Shown in pieces: positions 30,193-56,107 of a stretch of 64,000 bases of DNA. The position numbers and the translations under genes are program-made. The stretch is from Escherichia coli (GTDB lineage: Bacteria; Pseudomonadota; Gammaproteobacteria; Enterobacterales; Enterobacteriaceae), in the NCBI RefSeq assembly GCF_036507355.1, contig NZ_AP027877.1. One strand, given 5' to 3'. The notes beneath the pieces were generated by a model. That model was not told the origin of the DNA. It searched no databases and saw nothing but the letters and a program-made list of their open reading frames with translations. Numbering within the stretch: position 1 is the first letter of the stretch; each line of letters opens with the position of its first letter.

Positions 30193-30293
<101 letters not shown>

Positions 30294-30384
30294 CAATGAA
30301 TGCGAAACCGCGGTGTAAATAACGACAAAAATAAAATTGGCCGCTTCGGTCAGGGCCAACTATTGCCTGAAAAAGGGTAACGAT

Positions 30385-31755: not shown

Positions 31756-31809
31756 TGTCGGATCTTCCCTTACCCCATTGCGGGTAAGGGGCTAATAACA
31801 GGAACAACG

Positions 31810-33204: not shown

Positions 33205-33205
33205 T

Positions 33206-34684
33206 ATGAGCTTACGTGAAAAAACCATCAGCGGCGCGAAGTGGTCGGCGATTGCCACGGTGATCATCATCGGCCTCGGGCTGGTGCAGATGACCGTGCT
33301 GGCGCGGATTATCGACAACCACCAGTTCGGTTTGCTTACCGTGTCGCTGGTGATCATCGCGCTGGCAGATACGCTTTCTGACTTCGGTATTGCTAACTCG
33401 ATTATTCAGCGAAAAGAAATCAGCCACCTTGAACTCACCACGCTGTACTGGCTGAACGTTGGGCTGGGGCTTGTGGTGTGTGTGGCGGTGTTTTTGTTGA
33501 GCGATCTCATCGGCGACGTGCTGAATAACCCGGACCTGGCACCGTTGATTAAAACATTGTCGCTGGCGTTTGTGGTGATCCCCCACGGGCAACAATTTCG
33601 TGCGTTGATGCAGAAGGAGCTGGAGTTCAACAAAATCGGCATGATCGAAACCAGCGCGGTGCTGGCGGGCTTCACTTTTACAGTGGTTAGCGCCCATTTC
33701 TGGCCGCTGGCGATGACCGCGATCCTCGGTTATCTGGTCAATAGTGCGGTGAGAACGCTGCTATTTGGCTACTTTGGCCGGAAAATTTATCGCCCCGGTC
33801 TGCATTTCTCGCTGGCGTCTGTTGCGCCGAACTTACGCTTTGGTGCCTGGCTGACGGCGGACAGCATCATCAACTATCTCAATACCAACCTTTCAACGCT
33901 GGTGCTGGCGCGTATTCTCGGCGCGGGCGTGGCAGGGGGATACAACCTGGCGTACAACGTGGCCGTTGTGCCGCCGATGAAGCTGAACCCGATCATCACC
34001 CGTGTGTTGTTTCCGGCATTCGCCAAAATTCAGGACGATACCGAAAAGCTGCGCGTCAACTTCTACAAGCTGCTGTCGGTGGTGGGGATTATCAACTTTC
34101 CGGCGCTGCTCGGGCTGATGGTGGTGTCAAATAACTTTGTACCGCTGGTATTTGGCGAAAAGTGGAACAGCATTATTCCGGTGCTGCAATTGCTGTGTGT
34201 GGTGGGTCTGCTGCGCTCCGTAGGTAACCCGATTGGCTCGCTGCTGATGGCGAAAGCGCGGGTCGATATCAGCTTTAAATTCAACGTATTCAAAACATTT
34301 CTGTTTATTCCGGCGATTGTTATTGGTGGGCAGATGGCGGGCGCAATCGGCGTCACGCTTGGCTTCCTGCTGGTGCAGATTATCAACACCATTCTGAGTT
34401 ACTTCGTGATGATTAAACCGGTTCTTGGTTCCAGTTATCGCCAGTACATCCTGAGTTTGTGGCTGCCGTTTTATCTCTCGCTGCCGACGCTGGTGGTCAG
34501 TTATGCACTGGGCATTGTACTGAAAGGGCAACTGGCGCTGGGGATGCTGCTGGTGGTGCAAATAGCCGCAGGCGTGCTGGCGTTTGTGGTGATGATTGTG
34601 CTGTCGCGCCATCCGCTGGTGGTGGAAGTGAAGCGTCAGTTTTGTCGCAGCGAAAAAATGAAAATGCTTTTACGGGCGGGGTGA
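33206..34684 (+). CDS. wzxC: Colanic acid repeat-unit flippase
   Basis: 492 aa polytopic membrane protein; position in cluster. Confidence 0.9.
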   Translation: MSLREKTISGAKWSAIATVIIIGLGLVQMTVLARIIDNHQFGLLTVSLVIIALADTLSDFGIANSIIQRKEISHLELTTLYWLNVGLGLVVCVAVFLLSDLIGDVLNNPDLAPLIKTLSLAFVVIPHGQQFRALMQKELEFNKIGMIETSAVLAGFTFTVVSAHFWPLAMTAILGYLVNSAVRTLLFGYFGRKIYRPGLHFSLASVAPNLRFGAWLTADSIINYLNTNLSTLVLARILGAGVAGGYNLAYNVAVVPPMKLNPIITRVLFPAFAKIQDDTEKLRVNFYKLLSVVGIINFPALLGLMVVSNNFVPLVFGEKWNSIIPVLQLLCVVGLLRSVGNPIGSLLMAKARVDISFKFNVFKTFLFIPAIVIGGQMAGAIGVTLGFLLVQIINTILSYFVMIKPVLGSSYRQYILSLWLPFYLSLPTLVVSYALGIVLKGQLALGMLLVVQIAAGVLAFVVMIVLSRHPLVVEVKRQFCRSEKMKMLLRAG

Positions 34685-34714
34685 ATGGTTGTTTTAGGCT
34701 CCGACAACGGTTGC

Positions 34715-34900
34715 CGGGTGCAGCGTAAAACGCCTTATCCATCCTACGGTTCTGTGCTCGGGACCTGTAGGCCTGATAAGACGCGTCAGCGTCGCATCAG
34801 GCACTGAATGCCGGATGCGGCGTGAACGCCTTATCCGGCCTACGGTTCTGTGCTCGGGTCTTGTAGGCCTGATAAGACGCGCCAGCGTCGCATCAGGCAA
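34715..34900. repeat. REP/BIME cluster (about four REP units) between wzxC and wcaK
   Basis: Alternating gccggatgcggcgtgaacgccttatccggcctac and gtaggcctgataagacgcg(t/c)cagcgtcgcatcaggc units. Confidence 0.85.
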
Positions 34901-34959
34901 AAAACGGCAACGAACACAACAAACACAGCCTCACCTGGCATCAAATTTATGAGGAAAAA

Positions 34960-36240
34960 ATGAAATTACTTATTCTGGGCAACCACACTTGCGGCAATCG
35001 TGGCGACAGCGCCATCCTGCGCGGCTTACTTGATGCCATCAACATCCTCAATCCACACGCCGAAGTGGACGTGATAAGCCGCTATCCGGTCAGTTCTTCC
35101 TGGCTGCTCAACCGCCCGGTAATGGGTGATCCGCTGTTCCTTCAAATGAAACAACACAACAGCGCAGCGGGCGTTGTCGGGCGCGTTAAAAAAGTCCTCC
35201 GTCGCCGCTACCAGCATCAGGTATTGCTCTCACGCGTCACCGACACTGGCAAGCTGCGTAATATCGCCATCGCCCAGGGATTCACCGACTTCGTGCGCCT
35301 GCTGTCAGGTTACGACGCCATTATCCAGGTCGGCGGATCGTTTTTTGTCGATCTCTATGGTGTGCCGCAGTTTGAACACGCGCTATGCACGTTTATGGCG
35401 AAAAAGCCGCTGTTTATGATTGGTCACAGCGTCGGTCCGTTCCAGGATGAGCAATTTAACCAACTGGCGAACTACGTTTTTGGTCACTGCGACGCGCTGA
35501 TCCTGCGCGAATCGGTCAGCCTTGAACTGATGAAACGCAGCAATATCACCACTGCAAAAGTTGAACATGGCGTCGATACCGCGTGGCTGGTCGATCACCA
35601 CACCGAAGATTTCACCGCCAGCTATGCCGTCCAACACTGGCTGGACGTTGCCGCACACCAGAAAACGGTGGCAATTACCCTGCGCGAACTGGCACCGTTC
35701 GACAAACGTCTCGGCACCACTCAGCAAGCGTATGAAAAAGCCTTTGCCGGGGTGGTCAATCACATTCTCGATGAAGGGTATCAGGTGATTGCGCTCTCCA
35801 CCTGTACGGGCATCGACAGCTATAACAAAGACGACCGCATGGTGGCGCTCAACCTGCGCCAGCATATCAGCGATCCTGCCCGTTATCACGTAGTGATGGA
35901 TGAACTCAACGATCTGGAAATGGGCAAAATTCTCGGTGCCTGTGAACTCACCGTCGGTACGCGCCTGCACTCCGCCATTATCTCAATGAACTTTGCTACT
36001 CCGGCGATTGCCATCAACTATGAACATAAATCCGCCGGGATTATGCAGCAGCTGGGACTACCGGAGATGGCAATTGATATCCGTCATTTATTAGACGGCA
36101 GCCTGCAAGCGATGGTTGCGGATACCTTAGGCCAGCTTCCGGCGCTGAACGCACGACTTAGCGAAGCCGTCAGTCGTGAGCGTCAGACGGGAATGCAGAT
36201 GGTGCAGTCCGTACTGGAACGCATCGGGGAGGTGAAATGA
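34960..36240 (+). CDS. wcaK: Colanic acid pyruvyl transferase
   Basis: 426 aa; position in cluster. Confidence 0.9.
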   Translation: MKLLILGNHTCGNRGDSAILRGLLDAINILNPHAEVDVISRYPVSSSWLLNRPVMGDPLFLQMKQHNSAAGVVGRVKKVLRRRYQHQVLLSRVTDTGKLRNIAIAQGFTDFVRLLSGYDAIIQVGGSFFVDLYGVPQFEHALCTFMAKKPLFMIGHSVGPFQDEQFNQLANYVFGHCDALILRESVSLELMKRSNITTAKVEHGVDTAWLVDHHTEDFTASYAVQHWLDVAAHQKTVAITLRELAPFDKRLGTTQQAYEKAFAGVVNHILDEGYQVIALSTCTGIDSYNKDDRMVALNLRQHISDPARYHVVMDELNDLEMGKILGACELTVGTRLHSAIISMNFATPAIAINYEHKSAGIMQQLGLPEMAIDIRHLLDGSLQAMVADTLGQLPALNARLSEAVSRERQTGMQMVQSVLERIGEVK

Positions 36241-37457
36241 AGGTCGGCTTCTTCTTATTGAAATTTCCGCTGTCGTCAGAAACCTTCGTTCTTAACCAAA
36301 TCACTGCGTTTATTGATATGGGCTTTGAAGTGGAGATTGTCGCGCTGCAAAAAGGCGACACACAAAACACCCACGCGGCATGGACGAAATACAACCTTGC
36401 CGCCAGAACCCGCTGGTTACAGGACGAACCTACGGGCAAAGTGGCGAAACTGCGCCACCGAGCCAGTCAGACCTTGCGCGGCATTCATCGTAAAAATACC
36501 TGGCAGGCGCTCAACCTCAAACGCTATGGTGCCGAGTCGCGGAACCTGATTTTGTCTGCCATTTGCGGCCAGGTCGCAACACCGTTTCGCGCCGATGTGT
36601 TCATCGCTCATTTTGGCCCGGCGGGGGTAACCGCAGCAAAACTACGGGAACTGGGTGTCATTCGCGGCAAAATTGCCACTATTTTCCACGGCATTGATAT
36701 TTCCAGTCGGGAAGTGCTCAACCATTACACTCCCGAATATCAGCAACTGTTTCGACGTGGCGACCTGATGTTACCGATAAGTAATCTGTGGGCCGGAAGG
36801 CTGCAAAAAATGGGCTGCCCGAGGGAAAAAATTGCCGTATCGCGTATGGGCGTGGACATGACGCGTTTTAGCCCGCGTCCGGTGAAAGCGCCAGCAACGC
36901 CGCTGGAAATCATTTCCGTCGCACGCTTAACCGAGAAAAAAGGCCTGCATGTGGCGATCGAAGCCTGCCGGCAGTTGAAAGAGCAGGGCGTGGCATTTCG
37001 CTATCGCATCCTCGGCATTGGCCCGTGGGAACGACGCCTGCGCACCCTCATCGAACAATATCAACTGGAAGATGTGGTAGAGATGCCGGGCTTTAAACCG
37101 AGCCACGAAGTGAAAGCGATGCTCGACGACGCGGATGTCTTCCTGTTGCCATCGGTAACGGGCGCGGATGGCGATATGGAAGGCATTCCGGTAGCGCTGA
37201 TGGAAGCGATGGCGGTCGGCATTCCAGTGGTTTCTACTCTGCATAGCGGAATACCGGAATTGGTGGAGGCCGATAAATCCGGCTGGCTGGTGCCTGAGAA
37301 CGATGCTCGCGCACTGGCGCAACGCCTGGCGGCATTTAGCCAACTGGACACCGACGAACTGGCTCCGGTTATCAAACGTGCGCGCGAAAAAGTCGAACAC
37401 GATTTTAACCAGCAGATGATCAATCGAGAACTCGCCAGCTTGCTGCAAGCTTTATAG
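36237..37457 (+). CDS. wcaL: Colanic acid glycosyltransferase (GT4)
   Basis: 406 aa; position in cluster. Confidence 0.9.
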
Positions 37458-37467
37458 AGGAGAACGC

Positions 37468-38862
37468 ATGCCATTTAAAACACTCTCCCGACGCACCTTC
37501 CTGACGGCAAGCTCGGCGCTTGCCTTCCTCCATACCCCTTTCGCTCGCGCACTTCCCGCCCGACAAAGCGTTAACATTAACGACTACAACCCTCACGACT
37601 GGATCGCCTCATTTAAACAAGCCTTCAGCGAAGGGCAAACGGTCGTCGTGCCTGCTGGATTCGTTTGTGACAATATCAACACCGGCATCTTCATCCCTCC
37701 CGGCAAAACGTTACACATCCTTGGAAGCCTGCGCGGCAACGGCAGAGGGCGATTTGTCTTACAGGACGGCAGCCAGGTGACAGGGGAGGAGGGCGGCAGT
37801 ATGCATAACATCACCCTGGATGTGCGTGGTTCTGACTGCACCATCAAAGGGCTGGCGATGAGCGGCTTTGGCCCGGTAACGCAGATTTATATCGGCGGCA
37901 AAAACAAACGGGTCATGCGCAACCTGACCATCGATAACCTGACCATTAGCCACGCTAATTACGCCATCTTACGGCAGGGATTTCATAACCAGATTATCGG
38001 TGCCAACATCACCAATTGTAAGTTCAGCGACTTACAGGGGGACGCTATTGAATGGAACGTGGCGATTAACGACAGTGATATTTTGATCTCCGACCATGTC
38101 ATCGAGCGCATCAACTGTACCAACGGCAAAATCAACTGGGGCATCGGTATAGGCTTTGCGGGAAGCACTTACGATAATAATTACCCGGAAGACCAGGCAG
38201 TGAAAAACTTTGTCGTGGCGAATATCACGGGATCGGATTGTCGGCAGTTGATCCATGTTGAAAATGGTAAACATTTTGTTATTCGTAATATCAAAGCCCG
38301 CAATATCACGCCGGATTTCAGTAAGAAAGCAGGCATTGATAACGCGACAGTTGCTATTTACGGTTGTGACAATTTCGTGATTGATAATATTGAAATGATT
38401 AATAGCGCCGGGATGTTAATCGGCTATGGGGTAATTAAAGGCAAATATCTCTCGATACCGCAAAATTTCCGAGTGAATAATATTCAACTGGATAACACCC
38501 ACCTTGCTTACAAATTGCGCGGCATCCAAATCTCCGCCGGGAATGCTGTCTCCTTTGTGGCGCTGACTAACATTGAGATGAAGCGTGCCTCGCTGGAGTT
38601 ACACAACAAGCCGCAACATCTTTTTATGCGTAATATCAAGGTGATGCAGGAATCCTCTGTTGGACCCGCATTGATCATGAACTTCGACATGCGCAAAGAC
38701 GTTCGAGGCGTCTTTATGGCGAAAGAAGAAACACTGCTGTCTCTTGCAAATGTTCATGCGGTGAATGAAAGAGGGCAAAGCTCCATCGATATCGACAGGA
38801 TTAATCACCATATTGTTAATGTGGAAAAGATTAACTTTAGATTGCCGGAACGGAGAGAGTAG
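37468..38862 (+). CDS. wcaM: Colanic acid biosynthesis protein WcaM (Tat-type signal, beta-helix-like)
   Basis: 464 aa; N-terminal [15 protein letters not shown]; last gene of cluster. Confidence 0.9.
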
Positions 38863-39036
38863 ATTTGCGACCATTCCTGGAAAAATGGAGCCATACTTAA
38901 GAACAATGCTACTGCAATCCACAACGAAGCGGCGTAACATCACAAGTAATTCAGTAATCAATTCAGGGTAATTGATGCTGGCGAAGAAAATCGAACAAGC
39001 TATAATTCAGCAACCATTTTACAGGTGGATGAAATA

Positions 39037-39930
39037 ATGACGAATTTAAAAGCAGTTATTCCTGTAGCGGGTCTTGGGATGCATATGTTGCCTGCCACTA
39101 AGGCGATTCCCAAAGAGATGCTACCGATCGTCGACAAGCCAATGATTCAGTACATTGTTGACGAGATTGTGGCTGCAGGGATCAAAGAAATCCTCCTGGT
39201 AACTCACGCGTCCAAGAACGCGGTCGAAAACCACTTCGACACCTCTTATGAATTAGAATCTCTCCTTGAACTGCGCGTGAAGCGTCAACTGCTGGCGGAA
39301 GTACAGTCCATTTGCCCGCCGGGCGTGACAATTATGAACGTGCGTCAGGGTGAACCTTTAGGTTTGGGCCACTCCATTTTATGTGCACGACCTGCCATTG
39401 GTGACAATCCATTTGTCGTGGTGCTGCCAGACGTTGTGATCGACGACGCCAGCGCCGACCCGCTGCGCTACAACCTTGCTGCCATGATTGCGCGCTTCAA
39501 CGAAACGGGCCGCAGCCAGGTGCTGGCAAAACGTATGCCAGGTGACCTCTCTGAATACTCTGTCATCCAGACCAAAGAGCCGCTGGACCGCGAAGGTAAA
39601 GTCAGCCGCATTGTTGAATTCATCGAAAAACCGGATCAGCCGCAGACGCTGGAATCAGACATCATGGCCGTTGGTCGCTATGTGCTTTCTGCCGATATTT
39701 GGCCGGAACTTGAACGCACTCAGCCAGGTGCATGGGGGCGTATTCAGCTGACTGATGCCATCGCCGAACTGGCAAAAAAACAGTCCGTTGATGCCATGCT
39801 GATGACAGGTGACAGCTACGACTGCGGTAAAAAAATGGGCTATATGCAGGCATTCGTTAAGTACGGACTGCGCAACCTGAAGGAAGGGCCAAAGTTCCGT
39901 AAGAGCATTGAGAAGTTGCTCGGGGAATAG
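39037..39930 (+). CDS. galF: UTP-glucose-1-phosphate uridylyltransferase subunit GalF
   Basis: Start at [14 protein letters not shown] (297 aa). Confidence 0.95.
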
Positions 39931-40185
39931 ATCCAAGCCAATGTAACAATAATTTAGATAAATAGCGGCAGCTAACATTCCGGCGTCTATGCTTTAAACA
40001 AAGGAATGTTACTGTCGTTTTTCTTTTTAAAACAAAGAATAACAACGAGTTAACCTACTAAGTTTAATCTATTTTTTGTTGGATTTATCCTTGTTTCTGA
40101 CAGCATTTGGTAAGACAATTGGCGTTTGAATTTAAGATAGCTTTGCGATAGCTAGCGGGGCGGGGTACATCTTTGGCATTTTGCT

Positions 40186-40223
40186 AGTGCACTGGTAGCT
40201 GTTAAGCCAGGGGCGGTAGCGTG
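40186..40223 (+). promoter_or_regulatory. JUMPstart element with ops (GGCGGTAGCGTG at 40212-40223) in the O-antigen operon leader
   Basis: agtgcactggtagctgttaagccaggggcggtagcgtg; second exact ops copy in the window. Confidence 0.85.
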
Positions 40224-40322
40224 GTAAGATTGTGTTTATATGATGCGTTCTCAAAATAAGAAATAATAATCCTGACTATTTTTATACTATTGATAATATC
40301 TGAAATAAACTTAAGAGCAAAC

Positions 40323-41327
40323 ATGAAAGTAATTGTAAATAATTTTTTTGATGGTATTTTGAAAAGAGGAATACCGATCTATACTTCTGAACTTGTGCAA
40401 AAGTTAAGAGACAATAATGTTCAGGTTATTTATGTTGCATGTCCAAAAGCATTCCATAAGCTGCCTTCATGGTTTCTGAATGTTCTTTTTATAATAGTAG
40501 AGCAGCTTTTAATACCAATTATGGGTATATTTTATAGAACTAAGTATAATATATATCCCTATAATAGTAGTTCCATCATTGACTTGTTATTAGGTAAGGC
40601 AATTGTTATAATTCATGACTTCATTAGTCTTAAGAAAAATAAACGAAATCTTGCTGCCATTTATGTGAAAGTCTGTATTTATTTTTCATCTTTTTTAGCA
40701 AAGAAAGTAATATTTATTTCTCAAAGCACTCAGCGAGTATCTAAGAGAATATCGCTATTTAAGTGTATAGAATCTATCCTGCTCCCAAATCCATTTTTCT
40801 CATTTGAGAAAATTGCTAATGTTACCGAAATAAAAGATCTTGGATATTTACTTCTAGTTTCAGGTTTAGGGGATAATAAGGATCTAGGCACAGCTCTGGA
40901 CTATTATTTTTCAATCCCAAGGGAAGAAAGAATACCATTAAAAATATTAGGTTGTGGGAATGGTATTAGCAAGGTTAACGACTTAATTGATGGGCGGGAT
41001 ACAGATAAAGAAATTGAAATTATTGGTTTTGTTTCTTTAGAGGAAGTCGTCAAACTATATTGTAATTCTAAAATTGTTTGGGCTCATTCGCTTGCCGAGG
41101 GGTATGGGAGGACTTTAGCTGAAGCAAAACTCACATGCAAAAATGTTATATGCACACGGATCTCTGCTTTCCGCGAACAAAAGGATTCGAATATTTTCTT
41201 TTATACTTACTATTCTGAGTATTATGAAGTCTATTCATACTTGGTAGATAATTCACCCAGTGTCGAAAGGAAAGCTCTGCATGAACATATTTTATTTGAA
41301 AATGAATTGAGAAAGATTTATGAGTAA
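40323..41327 (+). CDS. O-antigen glycosyltransferase (GT1/GT4-like)
   Basis: AT-rich ORF; C-terminal EGYGRTLAEA resembles the GT4 E-x7-E motif; start could also be 40290. Confidence 0.7.
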   Translation: MKVIVNNFFDGILKRGIPIYTSELVQKLRDNNVQVIYVACPKAFHKLPSWFLNVLFIIVEQLLIPIMGIFYRTKYNIYPYNSSSIIDLLLGKAIVIIHDFISLKKNKRNLAAIYVKVCIYFSSFLAKKVIFISQSTQRVSKRISLFKCIESILLPNPFFSFEKIANVTEIKDLGYLLLVSGLGDNKDLGTALDYYFSIPREERIPLKILGCGNGISKVNDLIDGRDTDKEIEIIGFVSLEEVVKLYCNSKIVWAHSLAEGYGRTLAEAKLTCKNVICTRISAFREQKDSNIFFYTYYSEYYEVYSYLVDNSPSVERKALHEHILFENELRKIYE

Positions 41328-42522
41328 TATTGATATAAATAAGAAACAGATCTTAGTTTTGACTCCACGGTTCCCGTTTCCTGTCATTGGTGGGGATCGA
41401 TTACGTATCTATAAGATCTGTAAAGAACTGTCTAAGCATTATGATCTTACGTTGCTGAGTCTGTGTGATAAACGCGAAGAGCTCAACTATGAATATGATC
41501 GTGAAGTTTTTAGTAGTGTTCACAGAGTATATCTTTCAAAGAAAAAATCTATTTTAAATGTCATATTCTCTTTGTTTTCAAATACTCCCCTACAGATTGG
41601 GTATTATAAATCTAAAGAATTTGAAGATAAACTTAAGCAGTTATTACCTGAACATTCTGCAACTCTTTCACATTTGATAAGGGTTGGTGATTATGTGAAA
41701 GAGAATAAAGATATAAATTTTTTAGAGATGACCGATGCCATTTCACTTAATTATAAACGAGTAAAGGAAAAAGCATCTTTATTGAGTTTAAAAACATTTG
41801 TATATTCTTTTGAACAAAAAAGACTCGAACGATATGAGCGAACTATAAATAACAAGTTCAGCTTGACTACTTTAGTATCACAGGTTGACTCCGATTATTT
41901 ATATCCAGACCGTCCGAATAATGTATTAGTCTGTGGAAATGGTGTTGATGCCGTTAGCTTACCTTTTTCAGAACGAAAAATAGCTAAAGATAAAAAGATA
42001 ACCCTTGTATTTATAGGTAATTTATATTCTTTGCAAAATATGGATGGTGTGAGATGGTTCACCAAGGAAGTTTTACCATTTCTTAACAAGCATGGTAATT
42101 TTGAATTTAAGGTCATCGGACGTATTACAGATAAAGATAAGAGTTGGTTAGAAAGCCAGCCTGGCGTTGTTGTCACAGGTGAAGTTGATAGCATAACTTA
42201 TGCAGCAGCTGATGGGCATATTGGTGTATGTCCTATTAGATTAGGGGCAGGTATCCAAAATAAGGTACTTGAATATATGGCGTTGGGATTACCTTGTATC
42301 TCTTCTACTGTAGGCTTTGAAGGCTTGGGAGCAGAGGAGGGTAAGGAGATTTATGTTGCCAATACAAAAGAAGAATATTTACGTGTATTAAATTATTTTA
42401 TAACAAATCTGGATAAATATACCGAAACAGCATTAGTTGCGAAAAAGTTCATCGGTGAGAATTTTTCATGGGAAGCTAAATTGAGCCCATATATCCAGAA
42501 AATTAAGGAGTCTGTTAAATAA
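41320..42522 (+). CDS. O-antigen glycosyltransferase (GT4 family)
   Basis: 400 aa; GT4-like C-terminal domain ([22 protein letters not shown]). Confidence 0.75.
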
Positions 42523-42523
42523 A

Positions 42524-43939
42524 ATGATTATCCCAATTATTATGGCCGGTGGTTCTGGTACTCGCTTATGGCCTCTTTCGCGTTCGTTATACCCGAAACA
42601 ATTTTTATCATTGATTAATGAAAATAGTTTGCTCCAGGAAACGTTGAAGAGACTTGATGGATTAAATTGTTTGCCTCCTGTCATTGTTAGCAATAATGAG
42701 CATAGATTTATTGTTGCTGAACAATTGCGCCAGTTCGGTGTGGATGACTTCCAGATTATTCTAGAACCTGTAGGTAGAAATACTGCGCCCGCCGTTGCGC
42801 TGGCTGCTCTAAAGTCTCTAGAACTCCATGGCGATCATCATATGCTGGTTCTTGCTGCTGACCATGCTATTCAGGATATTGAAGCCTTCCATGCAGCTGT
42901 TTTAGCTGCAGAACAAGAGTCCGTTGACAATAAGTTAGTGACTTTTGGCATCGTCCCGACCAAACCTGAAACTGGGTATGGCTATATTAAAAAGGGCGAA
43001 CAAGTTAAAAACTCTGTATTTAAAGTAAATTCTTTCGTCGAAAAACCTGATTTAGAAACGGCTAAAAATTATCTCGAACAAAAATGCTATTTGTGGAATA
43101 GTGGTATGTTCATGTTCAAGGCGAGCGTATATTTAGATGAATTGAAAAAATTTCGCCCTGATATTTTAGCAGCGTGTAAAGAGTCGCTTTCCAGTGCTAG
43201 TACTGATCTAGATTTTATCAGATTAAATTCTGATGTCTTTGCAGAATGTCCCGATGAGTCAATTGATTATGCGGTAATGGAAAAAACTCAGGATTGTGTA
43301 GTTATTCCACTTGATGCTGACTGGAGTGACATCGGTTCATGGACATCACTTTGGGAAATATCAGAGAAAGATGAACATGAAAACGTATCGCATGGCGATG
43401 TAATTAACTATAACAGCAGGAACAACTACATTTACTCTGAAGGTTCACTGATCAGCACTGTAGGAGTTAATAACCTTATTATAGTTCAAACTAAAGATGC
43501 GCTCCTGGTAGCACAGCAAGACAACGTACAAGACATAAAGAAGATTGTCGAAATTCTTAAAAAGCAAAAACGTAGCGAACATGTATCCCATCGCGAAGTC
43601 TATCGTCCTTGGGGACGTTATGATTCTGTAGAACGTGGCGACCGTTATCAGGTAAAACGTATTACCGTTAAGCCTGGTGAATGTCTCTCAACACAAATGC
43701 ATCATCATCGAGCTGAGCATTGGGTGGTTGTCGCTGGTACTGCAAAGGTGACTTGCGGCGAACGCACTTTTTTCGTCACTGAAAATGAGTCAACTTTCAT
43801 ACCAATTGGCACAGTTCATACCTTGGAAAATCCAGGAAAGATACCATTAGAAGTAATTGAGATTCAGTCGGGTGTATATCTAGGTGATGATGATATTGTG
43901 CGCCTAAGTGATAAATATGGTCGTGTTGAGGATAAATAA
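42524..43939 (+). CDS. manC: Mannose-1-phosphate guanylyltransferase (O-antigen copy)
   Basis: 471 aa; [16 protein letters not shown]; collinear with cpsB but AT-rich. Confidence 0.9.
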
Positions 43940-43943
43940 TTAT

Positions 43944-45365
43944 ATGAATATTACCAATGATGTAATTAAAAATAGCGGAATTGCATTTGGTACAAGTGGT
44001 GCTCGTGGATTAGTGAAAGATTTTACACCCAACGTGTGTGCTGCATTCACTTATGCTTTTATCGATGTAATGATGAAGGATTTTTCTTTTAAAGAGGTTG
44101 CGCTCGCAATAGATAATCGGCCAAGCAGCTATGCTATGGCACAAGCTTGCGCAGCAGCATTGTTGGAATGTAGTATTAAACCTATTTACTACGGTGTAAT
44201 TCCAACTCCAGCTTTGGCAAATCAAGCGATTGCCGATGGGATTCCTGCAATAATGGTTACTGGAAGTCATATTCCATTTGATAGAAATGGTTTGAAATTC
44301 TATCGTCCAGACGGGGAAATTTCAAAAGAAAATGAGAACAGCATTATACATGCTGAAAAAGAGTATCCTGATGTAACTGTATTGCCAGAATTACAATGTT
44401 CAAAGCGTGCCGCTGATACTTATATCGAGAGAAACACTTCAATTTTTTCAAATATATTTAAAGGTAAACGTATCGGGATTTATGAACATTCAAGTGCGGG
44501 ACGGGATCTTTATTCAGAAATATTCAGTAAACTTGGTGCTGAAGTTGTAAGTATTGGTAGAAGTGATAAGTTTGTGCCTATTGATACTGAAGCAGTATCA
44601 AAAGAAGATGAAGAAAAAGCTTTACACTGGTCATCTGAGTATGACCTCGATATGATTTTTTCTACCGATGGTGATGGCGATCGTCCTTTGGTTGCTGACG
44701 AAAATGGCGTTTGGTTACGGGGTGATATATTAGGACTATTTTGCTCAAAGGCAATGAATATTGAAGCGGTAGCTGTACCTGTAAGTTGTAATACGGTTAT
44801 TCAGACTTGCGGGTGGTTTAATCATGTAACGCTGACTAAAATTGGTTCACCATACGTCATTTCAGCGTTTGATTCTCTGAATAATAGTTTTGATAGGGTT
44901 GCAGGGTTTGAGGCTAACGGTGGGTATCTTTTAGGTAGCGATGTAAATTATAACAGCGGTATGATTAAAGCGCTTCCAACAAGAGATGCTGTTTTGCCTG
45001 CTTTAATGGTACTGGCACTGGCTATAAAAAATAATGTGACTATTTCAAAACTCTTGGCGGAGTTGCCACCACGATTTACCTACTCAAATAGAGTTCAAAA
45101 TTTTGCAACAAGCAAAAGCAAAAGCATTATCGCGTCAGCTCAAGAAAATCCTCAAGAATTTATCGAAAGAATAGGCTTTGTCGATCTTCATGTACAATCG
45201 GTGGATACAATTGACGGGTTAAGATTGACACTAAGTGATGGTTCAATAATCCATTTGCGACCGTCAGGCAACGCACCTGAATTGCGATGCTATGCAGAAG
45301 CAGATAACATAATAAAAGCTGAAAAATTAGTGTTAGAAGTTTTGCATAAAGTTACTCTTTTGTAA
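43944..45365 (+). CDS. manB: Phosphomannomutase (O-antigen copy)
   Basis: Start at [22 protein letters not shown] (473 aa); AT-rich. Confidence 0.85.
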
Positions 45366-45547
45366 AAAATATAAACTTTTTTCTACTCTTGAGCGGTTTG
45401 TCATTTAACCGCTCAGTAATAGATTGTTTATAAATTGTTTATATTTAGCATTGGTGTTTTTATTTGCGTTCATCCCGAATAAGAGATTGTAAAATTAACT
45501 GTTTCTTATTTTTCAAATGAGTTACTTCACTAGTAAAGCTAATTACT

Positions 45548-46879
45548 ATGCATAAGCAATATTATTTATTATTGTGCAATAAAATACAGTTTAAACATCT
45601 GGCTATATATTTTTCTGTATTTCTTTCACTATCCTCATGTTTCTTGTGGGGAGGGGCGGATACATTTGTATCGCAAGTGTATATTGATATTTTAGCCACT
45701 ATATCTACAGCGCTATTAGTTATTTTGATGTTCTATTATTATATTAATAGAGTTCGCTATTTATCACTAACCTTACTTTTTGCATTCGTTTTTTCTTTGA
45801 TTATTGGTTTGCCATCGATTTATCTTTACTATTTTAAAAACGCAAATCATGGGTTTGAAATAATTTGTATCTGGGGGATGTTGATCAATTCCATCCTTTA
45901 CTTGCAAACAACAGAGACTGTCATAAAAGAAGAAAAAAGATATTTAACTAGTTTATTTTATATTTTGTTTTCTATTGTTGCACTGTGTCAATTATACAAA
46001 ATATTAATTTATCTTATGTTTATATTGAATTCAGGAGAAGGGCATTTAGCAATTTATACTGAAAGCGAAGAATTGCTATCCCAAGTTCCATTTTTTATTC
46101 GTGCTATTAGTGGTTTTGCAGTTGTAATGTCATTGTCCACTTTTTATTTTAAAACACCGACCTACATTAAAGTTATTGCATTTGTTTTACTTGCATCTGA
46201 TTTAGCTATTGGAATACGTAATAAGTTTTTCTTTTCAGTGATTTGTATTTTTATACTATATATGTACTCTAATGAGTATAGAGTAAGAAATTTATTTAAG
46301 CAGCTCTCAAAACCAATATTTCTCATCGCCGGTTTTTTATGCTTCTCGATGGTATCGTATTTCCGTGAAGGGTACCAAATCGATTTTATGATTTATATTG
46401 GCATTGTTTTAGATTCGCTATCCTCTACTCTTGGGGGGATGCAGAATTTGTTTGATATGCAATCATCAGGATGGGATCAACTTCATCCCGCTGTGGTATT
46501 CACACAAGTATTACCGCTAAGCGGTCTTGGTTTTCTTGATGATCAACAAATCGCAAAAGATTTTTCAATAATTGTTTTAGGTGATGTATCCTCTGGTATT
46601 GCGTTGTCATCTTCAGGATTGTTAGAGTCATCGTTGCTGAGTCTAAACTTGGGAGTGATTATTTATTTACTGTATTTATCAGGGGTGATGCTATTTATTA
46701 AATGGGGACTAAATAATCAACGGATAATAATAAACTTTGTTGCCATCTCCATGATATCTGGATTTTTTTATGCTGTTCGTGGTGAACTGATTTTGCCATT
46801 GGCTTTTCTTCTAAAATCATTGCCGATTGTTCTTATATCTCCATTACTTGTTAAAAATAAAATTTATCATGGTCAGTAA
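45548..46879 (+). CDS. wzy: O-antigen polymerase
   Basis: 443-aa extremely hydrophobic, very AT-rich ORF with multiple predicted TM segments; start uncertain. Confidence 0.7.
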   Translation: MHKQYYLLLCNKIQFKHLAIYFSVFLSLSSCFLWGGADTFVSQVYIDILATISTALLVILMFYYYINRVRYLSLTLLFAFVFSLIIGLPSIYLYYFKNANHGFEIICIWGMLINSILYLQTTETVIKEEKRYLTSLFYILFSIVALCQLYKILIYLMFILNSGEGHLAIYTESEELLSQVPFFIRAISGFAVVMSLSTFYFKTPTYIKVIAFVLLASDLAIGIRNKFFFSVICIFILYMYSNEYRVRNLFKQLSKPIFLIAGFLCFSMVSYFREGYQIDFMIYIGIVLDSLSSTLGGMQNLFDMQSSGWDQLHPAVVFTQVLPLSGLGFLDDQQIAKDFSIIVLGDVSSGIALSSSGLLESSLLSLNLGVIIYLLYLSGVMLFIKWGLNNQRIIINFVAISMISGFFYAVRGELILPLAFLLKSLPIVLISPLLVKNKIYHGQ

Positions 46880-46920
46880 GTGGTTTATTTTTCGACCAGG
46901 ATCTCACCAGTAGGCATGAC

Positions 46921-48156
46921 ATGATCAAAGAAATTTTCTCCGATGGCATTTTTTCGCTATTTAATAAAATATGTTACTTCGGTTTTAAAACACTTGCAAT
47001 AATTCTGATTACTCGTTCCTTAGGAGAAGATGTAGGCGGAGAGTTCATTTTTTTAGTTGGTTTTCTCGAAGTCCTTCGGGTGGTTACTGATTTTGGTGTG
47101 GATCTGTTTGTTATAAAAAAATATAATGATTCTACAGATAAAATAAAACTATTAAATGTAACGTTTGCACAAAAAATTCTTTCTGGAGTAATTGTTTTAC
47201 TACTGTTTTGTTTGTATTCTTTTGTTCAGGGTTATCAATATAATGTCTATATTCCTATTGTGTTAGCCTTACCTGTTGCTTTATTTTTTAATTTCTCAAA
47301 TAGCTATTTTCAATCTCTAAATTCCAATAAATCTCTCACGTTTCCGATCGCAATTGCATCTATTGCAACGTGTACGATCTTCGCTATTCAGTATTTTTTC
47401 AACGTTAAATTTAACGCATGGGATTACCTGTGTGTTGAACTATTATTCGTATCGCTGGTTACACTAAAACTATTCGTTAGTGTCAAGTTTAGGTTTATTA
47501 GAACGTCAGCTTTTGATGTGCTAATGTCAATTCTTTCTTTATATAAATATACATTAAGTATAGGTCTTACAGCTGTTGTTGTAATTATTTATAGCCGTAT
47601 AGATAATTTTTATCTCAAGACATTTGCCCCAGGGGATCTTGCAGCATATGGCCAGATATTTAGGATGGTTGATCCACTGGTTATGGTTTCTTCTGTATTT
47701 TCTACAGTTGCCTATGCAAGATTTTGCCGAATTAACTTACAAGAAAAAAATACTTTTACTAAGGTGTTTCAGTTCCTGTTATGTATTGTGGCATATGGCG
47801 TGCTGAGTTCATTAGTTTATTTCTTTATAATAAAATACCTGGGTCATTTTGTATTGATTTCTAATGTTAATAATGATTTCTTGATAATGATGTTCTTGAT
47901 TGTTGCATGTGTGAAATGTATCAATGGTGGTACAACTGCAATAATTCAGTCACAGGGGTTTTATAAAGTGGGTTTGTATGTTTCGTATGTTTGCATTTTG
48001 ACATCGATACCAACTATGTATTTCTTAATAATGAAGTACGGTGTTAAAGGTGCTGCTATGACGATTCTGCTTGTAGAGTGTATTAGTTTCATATTACTTC
48101 TCTGCAGCTTTTTTATGATAAAAAAGATGCGTCCTAAAAAAACATTCGAAATGTAA
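46921..48156 (+). CDS. wzx: O-antigen flippase
   Basis: 411-aa polytopic membrane protein with Wzx-like N-terminus (RSLGEDVGGEF...DFGVD). Confidence 0.75.
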   Translation: MIKEIFSDGIFSLFNKICYFGFKTLAIILITRSLGEDVGGEFIFLVGFLEVLRVVTDFGVDLFVIKKYNDSTDKIKLLNVTFAQKILSGVIVLLLFCLYSFVQGYQYNVYIPIVLALPVALFFNFSNSYFQSLNSNKSLTFPIAIASIATCTIFAIQYFFNVKFNAWDYLCVELLFVSLVTLKLFVSVKFRFIRTSAFDVLMSILSLYKYTLSIGLTAVVVIIYSRIDNFYLKTFAPGDLAAYGQIFRMVDPLVMVSSVFSTVAYARFCRINLQEKNTFTKVFQFLLCIVAYGVLSSLVYFFIIKYLGHFVLISNVNNDFLIMMFLIVACVKCINGGTTAIIQSQGFYKVGLYVSYVCILTSIPTMYFLIMKYGVKGAAMTILLVECISFILLLCSFFMIKKMRPKKTFEM

Positions 48157-48308
48157 TCAATGAGTCCTCTTTGAATAGAATTAGTTTGTTCTATTTATGA
48201 ACACTTAGCTTGAGTAAGTTCTAACATAGATTACTAATTGTTTGATACTATCTGCTTTACAAGCATAACCGCGTATGTCGCGGTGACCACACCTGACAGG
48301 AGTATGTA

Positions 48309-49715
48309 ATGTCCAAGCAACAGATCGGCGTCGTCGGTATGGCAGTGATGGGGCGCAACCTGGCGCTCAACATCGAAAGCCGTGGTTATACCGTCTCCGT
48401 CTTCAACCGCTCCCGCGAAAAAACTGAAGAAGTTGTTGCCGAGAACCCGGGTAAGAAACTGGTTCCTTATTACACGGTGAAAGAGTTTGTCGAGTCTCTT
48501 GAAACCCCTCGTCGCATCCTGTTAATGGTGAAAGCAGGTGCAGGCACGGATGCTGCTATTGATTCCCTCAAACCATATCTCGATAAAGGTGACATCATCA
48601 TTGATGGTGGTAACACCTTCTTCCAGGACACTATTCGTCGTAATCGTGAGCTTTCAGCAGAGGGCTTTAACTTCATCGGTACCGGTGTTTCCGGCGGTGA
48701 AGAGGGGGCGTTGAAAGGGCCTTCCATCATGCCTGGTGGGCAGAAAGAAGCCTATGAACTGGTTGCACCAATTCTGACCAAAATCGCCGCAGTAGCTGAA
48801 GACGGTGAGCCATGCGTTACCTATATTGGTGCCGATGGCGCAGGTCACTATGTGAAGATGGTTCACAACGGTATTGAATACGGCGATATGCAACTGATTG
48901 CTGAAGCCTATTCTCTGCTTAAAGGTGGTCTGAACCTCACCAACGAAGAACTGGCGCAGACCTTTACCGAGTGGAATAACGGTGAACTGAGCAGCTACCT
49001 GATCGACATCACCAAAGATATCTTCACTAAAAAAGATGAAGACGGTAACTACCTGGTTGATGTGATTCTGGATGAAGCAGCAAACAAAGGTACCGGTAAA
49101 TGGACCAGCCAGAGCGCGCTGGATCTCGGAGAACCGCTGTCGCTGATTACAGAGTCTGTGTTTGCACGTTATATCTCTTCTCTGAAAGATCAGCGCGTTG
49201 CCGCTTCTAAAGTTCTCTCTGGCCCGCAAGCGCAGCCAGCAGGCGACAAGGCTGAGTTCATCGAAAAAGTTCGTCGTGCGCTGTATCTGGGCAAAATCGT
49301 TTCTTACGCTCAGGGTTTCTCTCAGCTGCGCGCAGCGTCTGAAGAGTACAACTGGGATCTGAACTACGGCGAAATCGCGAAGATTTTCCGTGCTGGCTGC
49401 ATCATCCGTGCGCAGTTCTTGCAGAAAATCACCGATGCTTATGCCGAAAATCCACAGATCGCTAACCTGCTGCTGGCTCCGTACTTCAAGCAAATTGCCG
49501 ATGACTACCAGCAGGCGCTGCGTGATGTCGTTGCTTATGCAGTACAGAACGGTATCCCGGTTCCGACCTTCGCTGCTGCGGTTGCCTATTACGATAGCTA
49601 CCGTGCCGCTGTTCTGCCTGCGAACCTGATCCAGGCACAGCGTGACTATTTCGGTGCGCATACTTATAAGCGCATTGATAAAGAAGGTGTGTTCCATACT
49701 GAATGGCTGGATTAA
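48309..49715 (+). CDS. gnd: 6-phosphogluconate dehydrogenase (decarboxylating)
   Basis: 468 aa; [16 protein letters not shown]. Confidence 0.97.
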
Positions 49716-49742
49716 TCCGATTTAACCAACAATAAAATTGAG

Positions 49743-49774
49743 GCCCGGCGTATATTGCACCGGGCTTTTTTTTT
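49743..49774 (+). terminator. Rho-independent terminator after gnd
   Basis: gcccggcgtatattgcaccgggc hairpin followed by T9. Confidence 0.8.
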
Positions 49775-49955
49775 GCCAATTATCTTATAGACTAAATGTC
49801 ACTGCTTAATATTAACTTAATAAATATCAGCTATTCTTATAAAGAAAATCTGAATTGTTTTTCGTTGCGTTGACCATCGAACAACGTAGCGTTAAAACTT
49901 TTAGCTCTTATCAGGATGCTAAAAACATCATGATTCACAGTTAAGTTAATTCTGA

Positions 49956-51131
<1,176 letters not shown>

Positions 51132-51140
51132 CATCTTGTT

Positions 51141-51174
51141 ATCAGGGCTATTTACGCCCTGATTGTCTTTTGTT
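51141..51174 (+). terminator. Probable terminator after ugd
   Basis: atcagggc...gccctgat 8-bp stem followed by a T-rich tract. Confidence 0.5.
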
Positions 51175-51273
51175 ACTTACGCAACAATTCATTATTTTTA
51201 TCACTTATCCTATAGCATTCGCGAGGATTATCGCTAAACTATGCGGACTTGGAAATTTCCGTCAGTTAGGGTA

Positions 51274-52254
51274 ATGATGAGAGTAGAAAATAATAATGTT
51301 TCTGGGCAAAACCATGACCCGGAACAGATTGATTTGATTGATTTACTAGTGCAGTTGTGGCGTGGCAAGATGACAATCATCATTTCCGTCATTGTGGCTA
51401 TTGCCCTGGCTATTGGATATTTGGCAGTAGCGAAGGAGAAATGGACGTCAACAGCAATTATCACTCAGCCCGACGTGGGGCAAATTGCTGGCTATAACAA
51501 TGCCATGAATGTTATCTATGGTCAGGCTGCGCCGAAAGTATCGGATTTACAGGAAACGTTGATTGGTCGCTTCAGTTCTGCCTTCTCTGCATTAGCAGAA
51601 ACGTTGGATAATCAGGAAGAGCCAGAAAAACTTACCATCGAACCTTCTGTTAAGAACCAGCAATTACCATTGACTGTTTCTTATGTTGGGCAAACTGCAG
51701 AGGGCGCACAAATGAAGTTGGCCCAATACATTCAGCAAGTTGACGATAAAGTGAATCAAGAGCTAGAAAAGGATCTCAAGGACAACATTGCTCTGGGACG
51801 GAAAAACTTGCAGGACTCTTTAAGAACGCAGGAAGTAGTCGCGCAGGGGCAGAAAGATCTGCGTATCCGTCAGATTCAGGAAGTGTTGCAGTATGCGAAT
51901 CAGGCGCAGGTGGCAAAGCCACAGGTTCAGCAGACTGAAGATGTGACGCAAGATACGTTGTTCCTTTTGGGTAGCGAAGCGCTGGAGTCGATGATTAAGC
52001 ATGAGGCGACCCGTCCGTTGGTGTTCTCATCAAACTACTATCAGACACGTCAAAACCTGCTGGATATCGAAAGCTTAAAGGTTGATGATCTTGATATTCA
52101 TGCTTACCGCTATGTGATGAAACCGACGTTACCTATTCGTCGCGATAGCCCGAAAAAGGCAATTACCTTGATTCTGGCGGTGCTGCTGGGTGGCATGGTT
52201 GGCGCGGGGATTGTCTTGGGGCGTAACGCTCTGCGTAATTACAACGCGAAGTAA
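51274..52254 (+). CDS. wzzB: O-antigen chain-length determinant
   Basis: Start at MMRVENNNVSGQ (about 326 aa); TM helices near both termini. Confidence 0.9.
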   Translation: MMRVENNNVSGQNHDPEQIDLIDLLVQLWRGKMTIIISVIVAIALAIGYLAVAKEKWTSTAIITQPDVGQIAGYNNAMNVIYGQAAPKVSDLQETLIGRFSSAFSALAETLDNQEEPEKLTIEPSVKNQQLPLTVSYVGQTAEGAQMKLAQYIQQVDDKVNQELEKDLKDNIALGRKNLQDSLRTQEVVAQGQKDLRIRQIQEVLQYANQAQVAKPQVQQTEDVTQDTLFLLGSEALESMIKHEATRPLVFSSNYYQTRQNLLDIESLKVDDLDIHAYRYVMKPTLPIRRDSPKKAITLILAVLLGGMVGAGIVLGRNALRNYNAK

Positions 52255-52274
52255 TCTTTTCGGTTTTAAAGAAA

Positions 52275-52308
52275 ATGGGCAGTGTGGTGACACCTTGCCC
52301 ATTTTTTT
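52275..52308 (+). terminator. Rho-independent terminator between convergent wzzB and hisI
   Basis: atgggca...tgcccat stem followed by T7. Confidence 0.8.
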
Positions 52309-52350
52309 GGCCGGATGCGACAACAATATCGCATCCGCTTACCCCGCAAC

Positions 52351-52955
52351 TCACTGATGCCGTTTACGCAGGTTTTCAATTACCGTCGTTAAATCCAGAT
52401 CCTGATCCTGCAACAGCACCAGCAGGTGATACATCAAATCAGACGCCTCGTTGGTCAGCTCAAAGCGGTCATGTACAGTCGCGGCCAGTGCGGTTTCCAC
52501 GCCTTCTTCGCCCACTTTCTGCGCAATGCGTTTGGTGCCGCTGGCATACAGTTTGGCAGTGTAAGAGGTTTCCGGGTCGGCAGATTTGCGTTCGGCGAGC
52601 AGTTGTTCCAGTTGATACAGGAACAGCCACTGGTGAGCGGTGTCGCCGAAGCAGCTGCTGGTGCCTTTGTGGCAGGTCGGGCCGATGGGATTCGCCAGCA
52701 CCAGTAAAGTGTCGTTGTCGCAGTCCGGCGCAATATTTACTACGTTGAGGAAATTGCCCGACGTTTCGCCTTTGGTCCACAGCCGTTGTTTAGTGCGCGA
52801 GAAGAAGGTGACTTTGCCGCTTTCGATGGTTTTGTCTAAAGCTTCCGGGTTCATATAGCCCAGCATTAGCACTTCGCCGGATACCGCGTGTTGCACAATC
52901 ACCGGCATAAGTCCGTCGATTTTTTCCCAGTCCAGTTCGCGACGTTGTTGTTCTG

Positions 52956-52962
<7 letters not shown>
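52351..52962 (-). CDS. hisI: Bifunctional phosphoribosyl-AMP cyclohydrolase / phosphoribosyl-ATP pyrophosphatase
   Basis: 203 aa; recognised as HisIE. Confidence 0.95.
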
Positions 52963-55040
<2,078 letters not shown>

Positions 55041-55041
<1 letters not shown>

Positions 55042-56107
55042 TACAGCACTCCTTTCGACGAGGGCAGGGTGTCGCCTTCCACGCGGATGGCCTGGCGCAG
55101 AGTGCGACCAAAGGCTTTGAACAGGCTCTCTACACGGTGATGATCGTTTTTACCTTTAGTTTTCAGGTGTAGCGTCACGCCCATGGTGTAAGAGAGCGAA
55201 CGGAAGAAGTGCTCGATCATCTCGGTGCTGAGATCGCCCACGCGCTGGTAGGTAAACTCGGCTTTATATTCCAGGTGCGGGCGACCAGAGATATCCAGTG
55301 CACAGCGGGCAAGGCATTCGTCCATCGGCAGCACAAAACCAAAGCGGCAAATACCGCGTTTGTCGCCGAGGGCGATTTTTAATGCTTCGCCCAGCGCCAG
55401 GCCGGTATCTTCGACGGTGTGGTGATCGTCGATATAGAGGTCGCCTTTGACGTTGATTTCCATGCGGAAACCGCCGTGGGTGGCGATCTGATCCAGCATG
55501 TGATCAAAGAAGCCAACGCCGGTATTAATCTTGCTGCCACCTTCACGATCCAGCCACACCTGGACGTCAATTTGCGTCTCTTTGGTGTTGCGCACTACAT
55601 GGGCGTAACGGTCTCGTTTAGTGAGTTGCTCACCAATCATCGGCCAGTTCAGGGTTTCGCGGTCGTAGCGTAAACCAGTAATGCCCATGTTTTCAGCGAG
55701 TTGAATATCGGTCGCGCGATCGCCAATCACATAACTGTTGGCACGATCCATCGCTTGCTCAGCAAGGTAACGCTCCACCAGTTTTACTTTCGGCTTACGG
55801 CAGTCGCACTCATCGGCGGGCAGGTGCGGACAAATCAGCACTTCATCAAACTGCACGCCTTGCGAGGTGAAGATCTGCATCATCAGGTTGTGCGGGCCAT
55901 CAAAATCCGCCTGCGGGAAACTTTGTGTTCCCAGACCATCCTGATTAGTGATCATCACCAGCTTGTAGCCCGCTTTTTGCAGCTTCAGCAGCTCCGGGAT
56001 CACGCCCGGTTCAAAGGCGAGTTTGTCAAAACGATCCACCTGAAAATCACTCGGCGGTTCGCTAATCAGGGTTCCATCGCGATCGATAAAAAGATACTTC
56101 TGACTCA

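Follow-up and report, generated by a model that had tools for sequence, protein, structure and literature searches.

The O-antigen block of the window, the 64,000-nucleotide stretch of Escherichia coli DNA analyzed here, is with a probability of about 0.96, as judged from sequence comparison, an intact copy of the cluster common to the serogroups O17, O44, O73, O77, and O106. All 8301 bases of the block are 99.8% identical to 92 complete E. coli genomes, among them that of K12a, the O17:H18 reference strain (PMC13248637). The segment carrying wzy and wzx has at least 99% identity to 92 complete genomes annotated with the O17/O44/O73/O77/O106 family, K12a included, and the DNA identity of the two genes to the O77-group cluster is 99.7%. 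The gene content and order, galF-GT-GT-manC-manB-wzy-wzx-gnd (GT, glycosyltransferase), are those of the OgGp9 (O77g, O77 group) reference. A preliminary description of the locus had left the serogroup unassigned. This turned out to be too cautious, since the near-identical wzx and wzy genes allow a call at the level of the group O17/O44/O73/O77/O106. The same description held that a match to a well-characterised serogroup would make the locus routine, and by that measure it is.

The cluster is indeed already known, its sequence, structure, and typing status having been published since 2007. Wang et al. 2007 (Microbiology 153:2159) reportedly described the O77-group cluster. Further descriptions of OgGp9, or the O77 group, are those of Iguchi et al. 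2015 and DebRoy et al. 2016.

The locus consists of six ORFs on the + strand between positions 40323 and 48156, in the order GT1, GT2, manC, manB, wzy, wzx and with no internal stops (Table 1). The first gene begins 100 bases downstream of a JUMPstart element with an ops motif (RF01707), located in the 5' untranslated region as in RfaH/ops-controlled operons. This element probably acts as the RfaH-dependent antitermination signal preceding the operon. Position 40186, at which the preliminary description began, falls on this element and marks no gene. Scans of the block for promoter and terminator consensus sequences revealed no enrichment (38 promoter hits versus 35.5 expected from shuffled sequence, and 6 terminator hits versus 4.3) and are uninformative about internal signals. 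Wzx and Wzy are both polytopic, with around 11 and 10 hydrophobic segments, respectively, and wzzB is nearby, as in Wzx/Wzy-dependent pathways; there is no wzm/wzt ABC transporter among the six genes of the cluster.

Table 1. Position of the O-antigen locus features in the window, with the evidence for each.
Feature	Position	Strand	Evidence
galF, conserved left flank	39037..39930	+	annotation of matching records
JUMPstart element with ops motif GGCGGTAGCGTG (40212-40223)	40185..40223	+	Rfam RF01707 59.2 bits, gathering score 35; exact motif search
GT1, 334-aa glycosyltransferase, GT-B type Glycos_transf_1 C-terminal domain	40323..41327	+	Pfam PF00534 E=1.2e-10
GT2, 400-aa glycosyltransferase, PGAP name family 4	41320..42522	+	Pfam PF13692 E=5e-19
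manC, mannose-1-phosphate guanylyltransferase / mannose-6-phosphate isomerase	42524..43939	+	TIGR01479 754.6 bits, cut-off 373; Pfam NTP_transferase, MannoseP_isomer
manB, phosphomannomutase	43944..45365	+	all four PGM_PMM Pfam domains; RefSeq phosphomannomutase
wzy, O-antigen polymerase, O17/O44/O73/O77/O106 family	45548..46879	+	RefSeq name of 99.7% match
wzx, O-unit flippase, O17/O44/O73/O77/O106 family	46921..48156	+	RefSeq name; Pfam Polysacc_synt 29.3 bits, cut-off 28.2
gnd, conserved right flank	48309..49715	+	annotation of matching records
wzzB, O-antigen chain-length regulator	51277..52254	+	collinear G4/9 annotation; ORF 51241-52254

The two glycosyltransferases have 100% amino acid identity with WP_000864846.1 of K12a (GT1) and WP_000065081.1 (GT2). 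Full identity to K12a agrees with published data, in which these proteins are 100% identical across O17, O44, O73, and O77 (Iguchi et al. 2015; PMC4379981). For GT1, we took the annotated ATG at 40323 as the start, the ORF list having a TTG at 40290. The end of this gene shares 8 bases with the start of GT2, whose product resembles TIGR03087 at 209 bits, under the cut-off of the model. GT1 and GT2 are the predicted two mannosyltransferases of the cluster. The window also encodes CpsB and CpsG. ManC shares 60% identity with CpsB, its paralogue for colanic acid, whereas ManB is only 24% identical to CpsG and belongs to a PGM/PMM subfamily distant from it. In NCBIfam, none of GT1, Wzy, and Wzx had an equivalog. 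As Wzy matched no Pfam family and its best NCBIfam hit was weak (TIGR04370, 30.8 bits for a cut-off of 40), its identity comes from near-identical named proteins and not from a domain model.

The closest complete genome is that of E. coli G4/9 (CP060073), a component of Symbioflor 2, which carries the same allele of the cluster with 0-6 substitutions. Its manC holds an IS3-family element of around 1.2 kb, at the position equivalent to 43537-43540 of the window, many 1-bp indels are found in its cluster, and most of the cluster genes are annotated as frameshifted. A review gives Symbioflor 2 a variable serotype, including rough (PMC5063008), and this product-level statement is the only one we found on the published serotype of G4/9. 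It could thus be argued that the cluster of the window is also a decayed, non-expressed copy, as apparently in G4/9, and that the strain is rough. We regard this as very unlikely and rejected it, because the window has no IS, its manC is uninterrupted, and none of the six ORFs is truncated or broken by a stop. Furthermore, the 'frameshifts' of G4/9 correspond to 56 gap openings (59 gapped bases), accompanied by very few substitutions and placed mostly in the AT-rich block, a pattern more suggestive of errors in the assembly than of a biological origin.

Compared with K12a, the block has 18 differences, of which 17 are substitutions and one is a 1-bp indel between genes. They result in one amino acid change in each of ManC and ManB and two in each of Wzy and Wzx, six in total. 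Among the complete RefSeq genomes, there is no 100% identical copy, and none is closer than 99.8% except the error-laden G4/9. The nearest public relatives stand 3-5 differences from the window, and the public genomes L005-L008 are at least 99.92% identical to it over 16-21 kb with flanks. The suggestion that these six substitutions define a functionally different, unrecognised form of the O antigen is even less plausible than that of a decayed cluster, and it was rejected: the glycosyltransferases, which set the linkages, are both identical to the reference, and the variant alleles are widespread. Exact matches to the Wzy, Wzx, ManB, and ManC of the window occur on 155-222 public contigs (155 for Wzy, 181 for Wzx) under the same family names. 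The exact Wzy, for example, is named O17/O44/O73/O77/O106 family, and also 'Wzy' in UniRef (Q1L824). In addition, the published clusters of the five serogroups, while >99% identical, themselves differ by up to around 1% (PMC7685785).

From the positions of the differences to the O17 strain, we placed the junctions of the exchanged block at around 39932-39980, just past galF (left), and around 410 bases inside gnd (right), with the first flank-type difference at 48719. Downstream of gnd lie ugd, wzzB, and the his operon; wzzB belongs to the pathway but lies outside the exchanged block. Over the flanks, identity is 95-96% with the O17 strain and 99.9-100% with G4/9, and the flanks were matched in 5425 (left) and 5424 (right) of the 5426 E. 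coli genomes. Identity of 99.8% in the block versus 95-96% in the flanks is a signature of horizontal exchange, and this contrast is the usual pattern of exchange at O loci. The least probable origin of all, that the block is a related cluster of another species, e.g., Salmonella enterica O:6,14, for which the same backbone was reported (PMC4732683), or Citrobacter, since a GT1 homologue with at least 90% identity is named from Citrobacter portucalensis, is refuted by the identities of these E. coli flanks, and copies of the block in E. coli match it at 99.8%.

The GC content of the block is 34.6% (31.5-40.1% for single genes), compared with 52.1% for galF, 50.7% for gnd, and 49.6% for the whole window. 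The preliminary description had proposed an AT-rich, horizontally exchanged, Wzx/Wzy-dependent O-antigen locus of six genes between JUMPstart/ops and gnd, with two glycosyltransferases, manC, manB, wzy, and wzx in that order. Every element of it was found in its place, the gene set is backed by domain and RefSeq evidence, and a GT-B pair, manC/manB, wzy, and wzx between JUMPstart and gnd bear out the type of locus, as do the GC content and the identity contrast for base composition and exchange.

The backbone of the O77 group is a tetrasaccharide with three mannoses, ->6)aMan(1->2)aMan(1->2)bMan(1->3)aGlcNAc(1->, and one of the two glycosyltransferases was proposed to transfer two of them (PMC7685785). 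This Man3GlcNAc backbone is common to O17, O44, O73, O77, and O106 (PMC7685785, PMC4379981, PMC4732683, PMC13188871, PMC10304059). Hence, the short, mannose-containing unit that had been predicted from the presence of two glycosyltransferases is rightly mannose-rich, but 'short' understates a tetrasaccharide in which one enzyme is proposed to act twice (PMC7685785).

These data suggest the following route. Transcription starting upstream of JUMPstart/ops would be made processive by RfaH, as the element implies, and ManB and ManC, given their strong family matches, would supply GDP-mannose. Priming by WecA is established for O units beginning with GlcNAc. Encoded elsewhere, WecA would load GlcNAc-1-P onto undecaprenyl phosphate, as had already been presumed, and the published unit starts with GlcNAc, which fits (PMC7685785, PMC10304059). 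The two cytoplasmic GT-B enzymes would then add three mannoses to give Man(a1-2)Man(a1-2)Man(b1-3)GlcNAc-PP-Und, with both a1-2 bonds made by a single enzyme if the literature proposal holds. Wzx would flip the unit, Wzy would polymerise it via a GlcNAc(a1-6)Man bond, WzzB would set the chain length, and WaaL would join the chain to lipid A-core. As candidate roles, GT2, with its family 4 name, might be the double-acting a1,2-mannosyltransferase and GT1 the b1,3-mannosyltransferase. This division of roles is a guess, as a sequence search of all PDB chains gave no matches for either protein at E<=0.01, and relaxing the limit to E<=10 added only noise, namely SarA and a fragment of WbaZ-1 with E=0.39.

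Glucose side branches are the sole difference between the five serogroups, and they are added by gtr genes located elsewhere (PMC7685785, PMC10304059). The final serogroup among the five would thus be set by periplasmic glucosylation via prophage gtrABC genes outside the cluster. As there are no gtr genes in the 64,000 nucleotides of the window, the call that can be made from it stops at the group level. Near-identical relatives carry gtrABC in a prophage at argW, where the specific gene encodes a 485-aa GtrC (WP_021570898.1) without family assignment. This GtrC is full-length in 14 of the 5426 complete genomes, at least 10 of which also have OgGp9, and is strongly tied to the O77-group cluster; it is not full-length in the O17 reference K12a or in the O44 strain 042, whose own gtr module occupies the lambda att site between ybhB and ybhC. 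It is conceivable, although we consider it rather unlikely, that the final O antigen of the strain has genetics beyond those understood, in which case the argW GtrC could be the enzyme that adds the glucose branch in O73 or O106, or could define a sixth, unrecognised form of the O77 group.

In practice, sequence-based serotyping of the strain can go no further than the group, O17/O44/O73/O77/O106 (O77g). ExPEC ST69 belongs to this group, as does the O77g:H18 lineage of STEC responsible for the 2025 cluster of HUS in France (PMC13188871, PMC13094856). As a discovery, this textbook O-antigen locus has little weight. Among prophage glucosyltransferases that would convert the common backbone to O17, O73, and O106, the argW GtrC is a candidate.

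Relative to known systems, the window departs from the O77-group cluster of K12a only by allelic changes. Its chromosomal background is different, since the flanks are G4/9-like, unlike those of phylogroup D strains, which predominate among the matches. The O antigen of Salmonella enterica O:6,14 (group H) is reported to have the same four-sugar backbone (PMC4732683), a likeness known from the literature only, and, unlike that system, the window has the flanks of E. coli. A parallel in logic is serotype conversion in Shigella flexneri, where, as in the O77 group, a common backbone from the rfb region receives glucose branches from gtrA-gtrB-gtrC modules elsewhere (PMC7685785, PMC10304059); the counterpart of such a module lies not within the window but at argW in its relatives.

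The preliminary description had reported an AT-rich block after a JUMPstart/ops element and before gnd, and both parts of this hold. A JUMPstart match is followed by six plus-strand ORFs with small or absent gaps between them (see table), and position 40186, noted as the start of the block, belongs to this element and not to a gene. Upstream lie galF and the colanic acid cluster, and downstream gnd (start 48309), ugd, wzzB, and the his operon. The GC profile gives 34.6% for the whole block against 49.6% for the window, and 31.5-40.1% for the six genes, with galF at 52.1% and gnd at 50.7%. A second JUMPstart/ops (15814-15852, RF01707, 57.3 bits) sits ahead of wza, at the start of the colanic acid cluster, where this operon is expected to have one. 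The other RNA features in the table are ordinary for this chromosomal region.

Features of the O-antigen block and RNA elements in the window
Feature	Position	Strand	Evidence or remark
JUMPstart	40185-40223		Rfam RF01707, 59.2 bits vs gathering score 35
ops motif GGCGGTAGCGTG	40212-40223		inside JUMPstart match
ORF1 (GT1)	40323-41327	+	ORF
ORF2 (GT2)	41320-42522	+	ORF
ORF3 (manC)	42524-43939	+	ORF
ORF4 (manB)	43944-45365	+	ORF
ORF5 (wzy)	45548-46879	+	ORF
ORF6 (wzx)	46921-48156	+	ORF
algC RNA motif	30331-30380		Rfam above gathering score; ahead of cpsG
naRNA4 (REP-derived RNA)	34770-34840		Rfam above gathering score; between wzxC and wcaK
His leader	59431-59554		Rfam above gathering score
STnc240	61851-61925		Rfam above gathering score

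The functions first proposed by eye, i.e., two glycosyltransferases, manC, manB, wzy, and wzx, agree with the family matches and with the RefSeq names of near-identical genes. In ORF1 and ORF2, the C-terminal domain is of the GT-B glycosyltransferase type (Pfam Glycos_transf_1, E=1e-10, and Glyco_trans_1_4, E=5e-19, respectively). ORF3 is a full ManC (TIGR01479, 755 bits vs cut-off 373), and the four PGM/PMM domains are all present in ORF4. ORF6 is narrowly above the cut-off for Polysacc_synt (29.3 vs 28.2 bits). The Pfam search with ORF5 returned no match, and the repeat-unit polymerase model TIGR04370 matched it below threshold only. ORF5 and ORF6 have around 10 and 11 hydrophobic segments, the two glycosyltransferases none or few. 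Compared with the colanic-acid counterparts in the window, identity is 60% for the cluster ManC (with CpsB) but only 24% for ManB (with CpsG, 30385-31755). Hence, ManB is not a gene duplicated locally but a member of another PMM subfamily, and the two GDP-mannose gene pairs differ in origin. The best NCBIfam match of ManB is an archaeal GlmM-type model, below its cut-off.

The serogroup had been left unassigned in the preliminary description, and this can now be amended. Searching with megablast, we found that 92 of 5426 complete E. coli genomes cover the whole query (40000-48300) at 99.8% identity. With wzy and wzx alone, 93 genomes matched, 92 of them at >=99% identity, all with O17/O44/O73/O77/O106 family names. 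In K12a, the O17:H18 reference strain (PMC13248637), the equivalents of ORF1-ORF4 are annotated as glycosyltransferase, glycosyltransferase family 4 protein, manC, and phosphomannomutase, and wzy and wzx as O17/O44/O73/O77/O106 family O-antigen polymerase and flippase. The GT1 and GT2 proteins are identical between the window and K12a; there is a single residue of difference in ManC and in ManB and two in Wzy and in Wzx, and all six proteins are full length. The sole indel is one A in the intergenic A-run directly past the manB stop. The exact Wzy, Wzx, ManB, and ManC of the window occur on 155-222 public contigs, and UniRef lists its Wzy as Q1L824 'Wzy'. Four public assemblies, chosen because they have the exact Wzy, are at least 99.92% identical to the window over 16-21 kb including flanks, with 3-5 differences within the cluster. 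Given this near-identity to K12a and to public alleles, the block is, judged by its sequence, a common allele of the O77 group cluster (also Gp9, OgGp9, or O77g). The observation is thus confirmed and its interpretation supported, but the cluster is already known and, since the group is well characterised, the finding is routine on the preliminary description's own reckoning. A 334-aa glycosyltransferase named from Citrobacter portucalensis shares a 90%-identity cluster with GT1; this relative suggests that the O77-group cluster, or part of it, is also present outside Escherichia.

The proposed horizontal exchange is borne out by comparison with the phylogroup D O17 strain: 18 positions differ in 39979-47752, against around 4-5% of positions on both sides of the block. 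The dense differences end at 39932 and restart at 48719, so the shared block runs from just past galF to around 410 bases into gnd. These alignments are typical of an O-locus that has moved between lineages through recombination within flanking genes. The O77-group cluster is present in several phylogroups (Iguchi et al., PMC4379981). The closest complete genome, the probiotic Symbioflor 2 strain G4/9, is collinear with the window from yegI through tsuA, and its flanks are 100.0% (30000-40000) and 99.9% (48300-56000) identical, against around 97% for the next-best genomes. Positions 1-773 gave no G4/9 alignment, although the same megablast search aligned the remainder of the left 38 kb, and 774-38193 has 120 substitutions, whereas 30000-40000 is 100% identical. 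Hence, the window does not come from G4/9 itself but from a related strain whose left region is mosaic. Between asmA and yegH, a 341-aa ORF (12498-13523, minus strand) corresponds in position to a G4/9 gene annotated as an IS110-family transposase.

The G4/9 copy of the cluster is damaged. An IS3-family element of around 1.2 kb lies within manC (L002, a G4/9 stretch, 6357-7540; window-equivalent 43537-43540), and the majority of the cluster genes are annotated as frameshifted. Aligned to the window, this copy shows 0-6 substitutions and 56 gap openings (59 gapped bases), and its 1-bp indels, dozens in number, are restricted to AT-rich block sequence. The insertion is probably real, and the frameshifts are probably homopolymer assembly errors in AT-rich DNA. 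Neither the element nor these indels are present in the window cluster.

The clusters of O17, O44, O73, O77, and O106 are >99% identical and share the backbone ->6)-a-D-Manp-(1->2)-a-D-Manp-(1->2)-b-D-Manp-(1->3)-a-D-GlcpNAc-(1->, which is bare in O77 and carries D-Glc side branches in the other four (PMC7685785; PMC4732683). The parts of a matching pathway seen in the window are JUMPstart/ops, an intact six-gene operon, strong ManC and PMM family membership, GT-B domains in both glycosyltransferases, polytopic Wzx and Wzy, and wzzB downstream. Following established pathway knowledge and cited structural work, the operon would be read through in an RfaH-dependent manner, WecA would prime with GlcNAc-1-P, and one b1-3 and two a1-2 mannoses would be added from GDP-Man in the cytoplasm. 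Wzx would then flip the unit, Wzy polymerise it through a1-6 linkages under chain-length control by WzzB, and WaaL ligate it, with optional periplasmic glucosylation via Gtr proteins. One glycosyltransferase of the O77 group is stated to transfer two Man residues (PMC7685785), which accounts for three mannosyl bonds from two genes; these proteins are 100% identical among O17, O44, O73, and O77 (Iguchi et al., PMC4379981). We guess that the double-acting a1,2-mannosyltransferase is GT2 and the b1,3 enzyme GT1; PDB sequence searches with both returned nothing bearing on this division of roles.

The five serogroups are not separable by genoserotyping (PMC13188871). Their D-Glc branches, one each at different positions in O17 and O44 and two in O73 and O106 (PMC10304059), are ascribed to gtr genes at other genomic loci, confirmed for O44 only, in a prophage gtr module (PMC7685785; PMC4732683); the O73 enzymes are stated as unidentified (PMC10304059). 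The 64-kb window has no gtr genes and thus does not decide among the five. In G4/9, the argW prophage (L009, around 31900-34650) carries intS, yfdG (gtrA), and a GT2 gene (gtrB), followed by AT-rich DNA that bears no annotation. In T-HYM1 (L011, 2724-5457), this DNA encodes a 485-aa 'hypothetical protein' with an intact reading frame, WP_021570898.1. This membrane protein, with around 9 hydrophobic segments and a coding sequence of 30.8% GC, gave no match in Pfam and is encoded directly 3' of gtrB, where a serotype-specific GtrC would be located. We regard it as a candidate glucosyltransferase for serotype conversion of the O77-group backbone, and this off-window thread is the only one meriting specialist attention. 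Among 5426 complete E. coli genomes, only 14 have this GtrC in full length. Of these, at least 10, a count based on 60 of the 93 OgGp9 carriers, also have OgGp9 (hypergeometric P ~1e-15). The contig NBJE01000001.1 has both the exact window Wzy allele and the exact WP_021570898.1. K12a (O17) and 042 (O44) lack a full-length GtrC of this kind; hence, the lineage probably makes a glucosylated O antigen different from the types of both.
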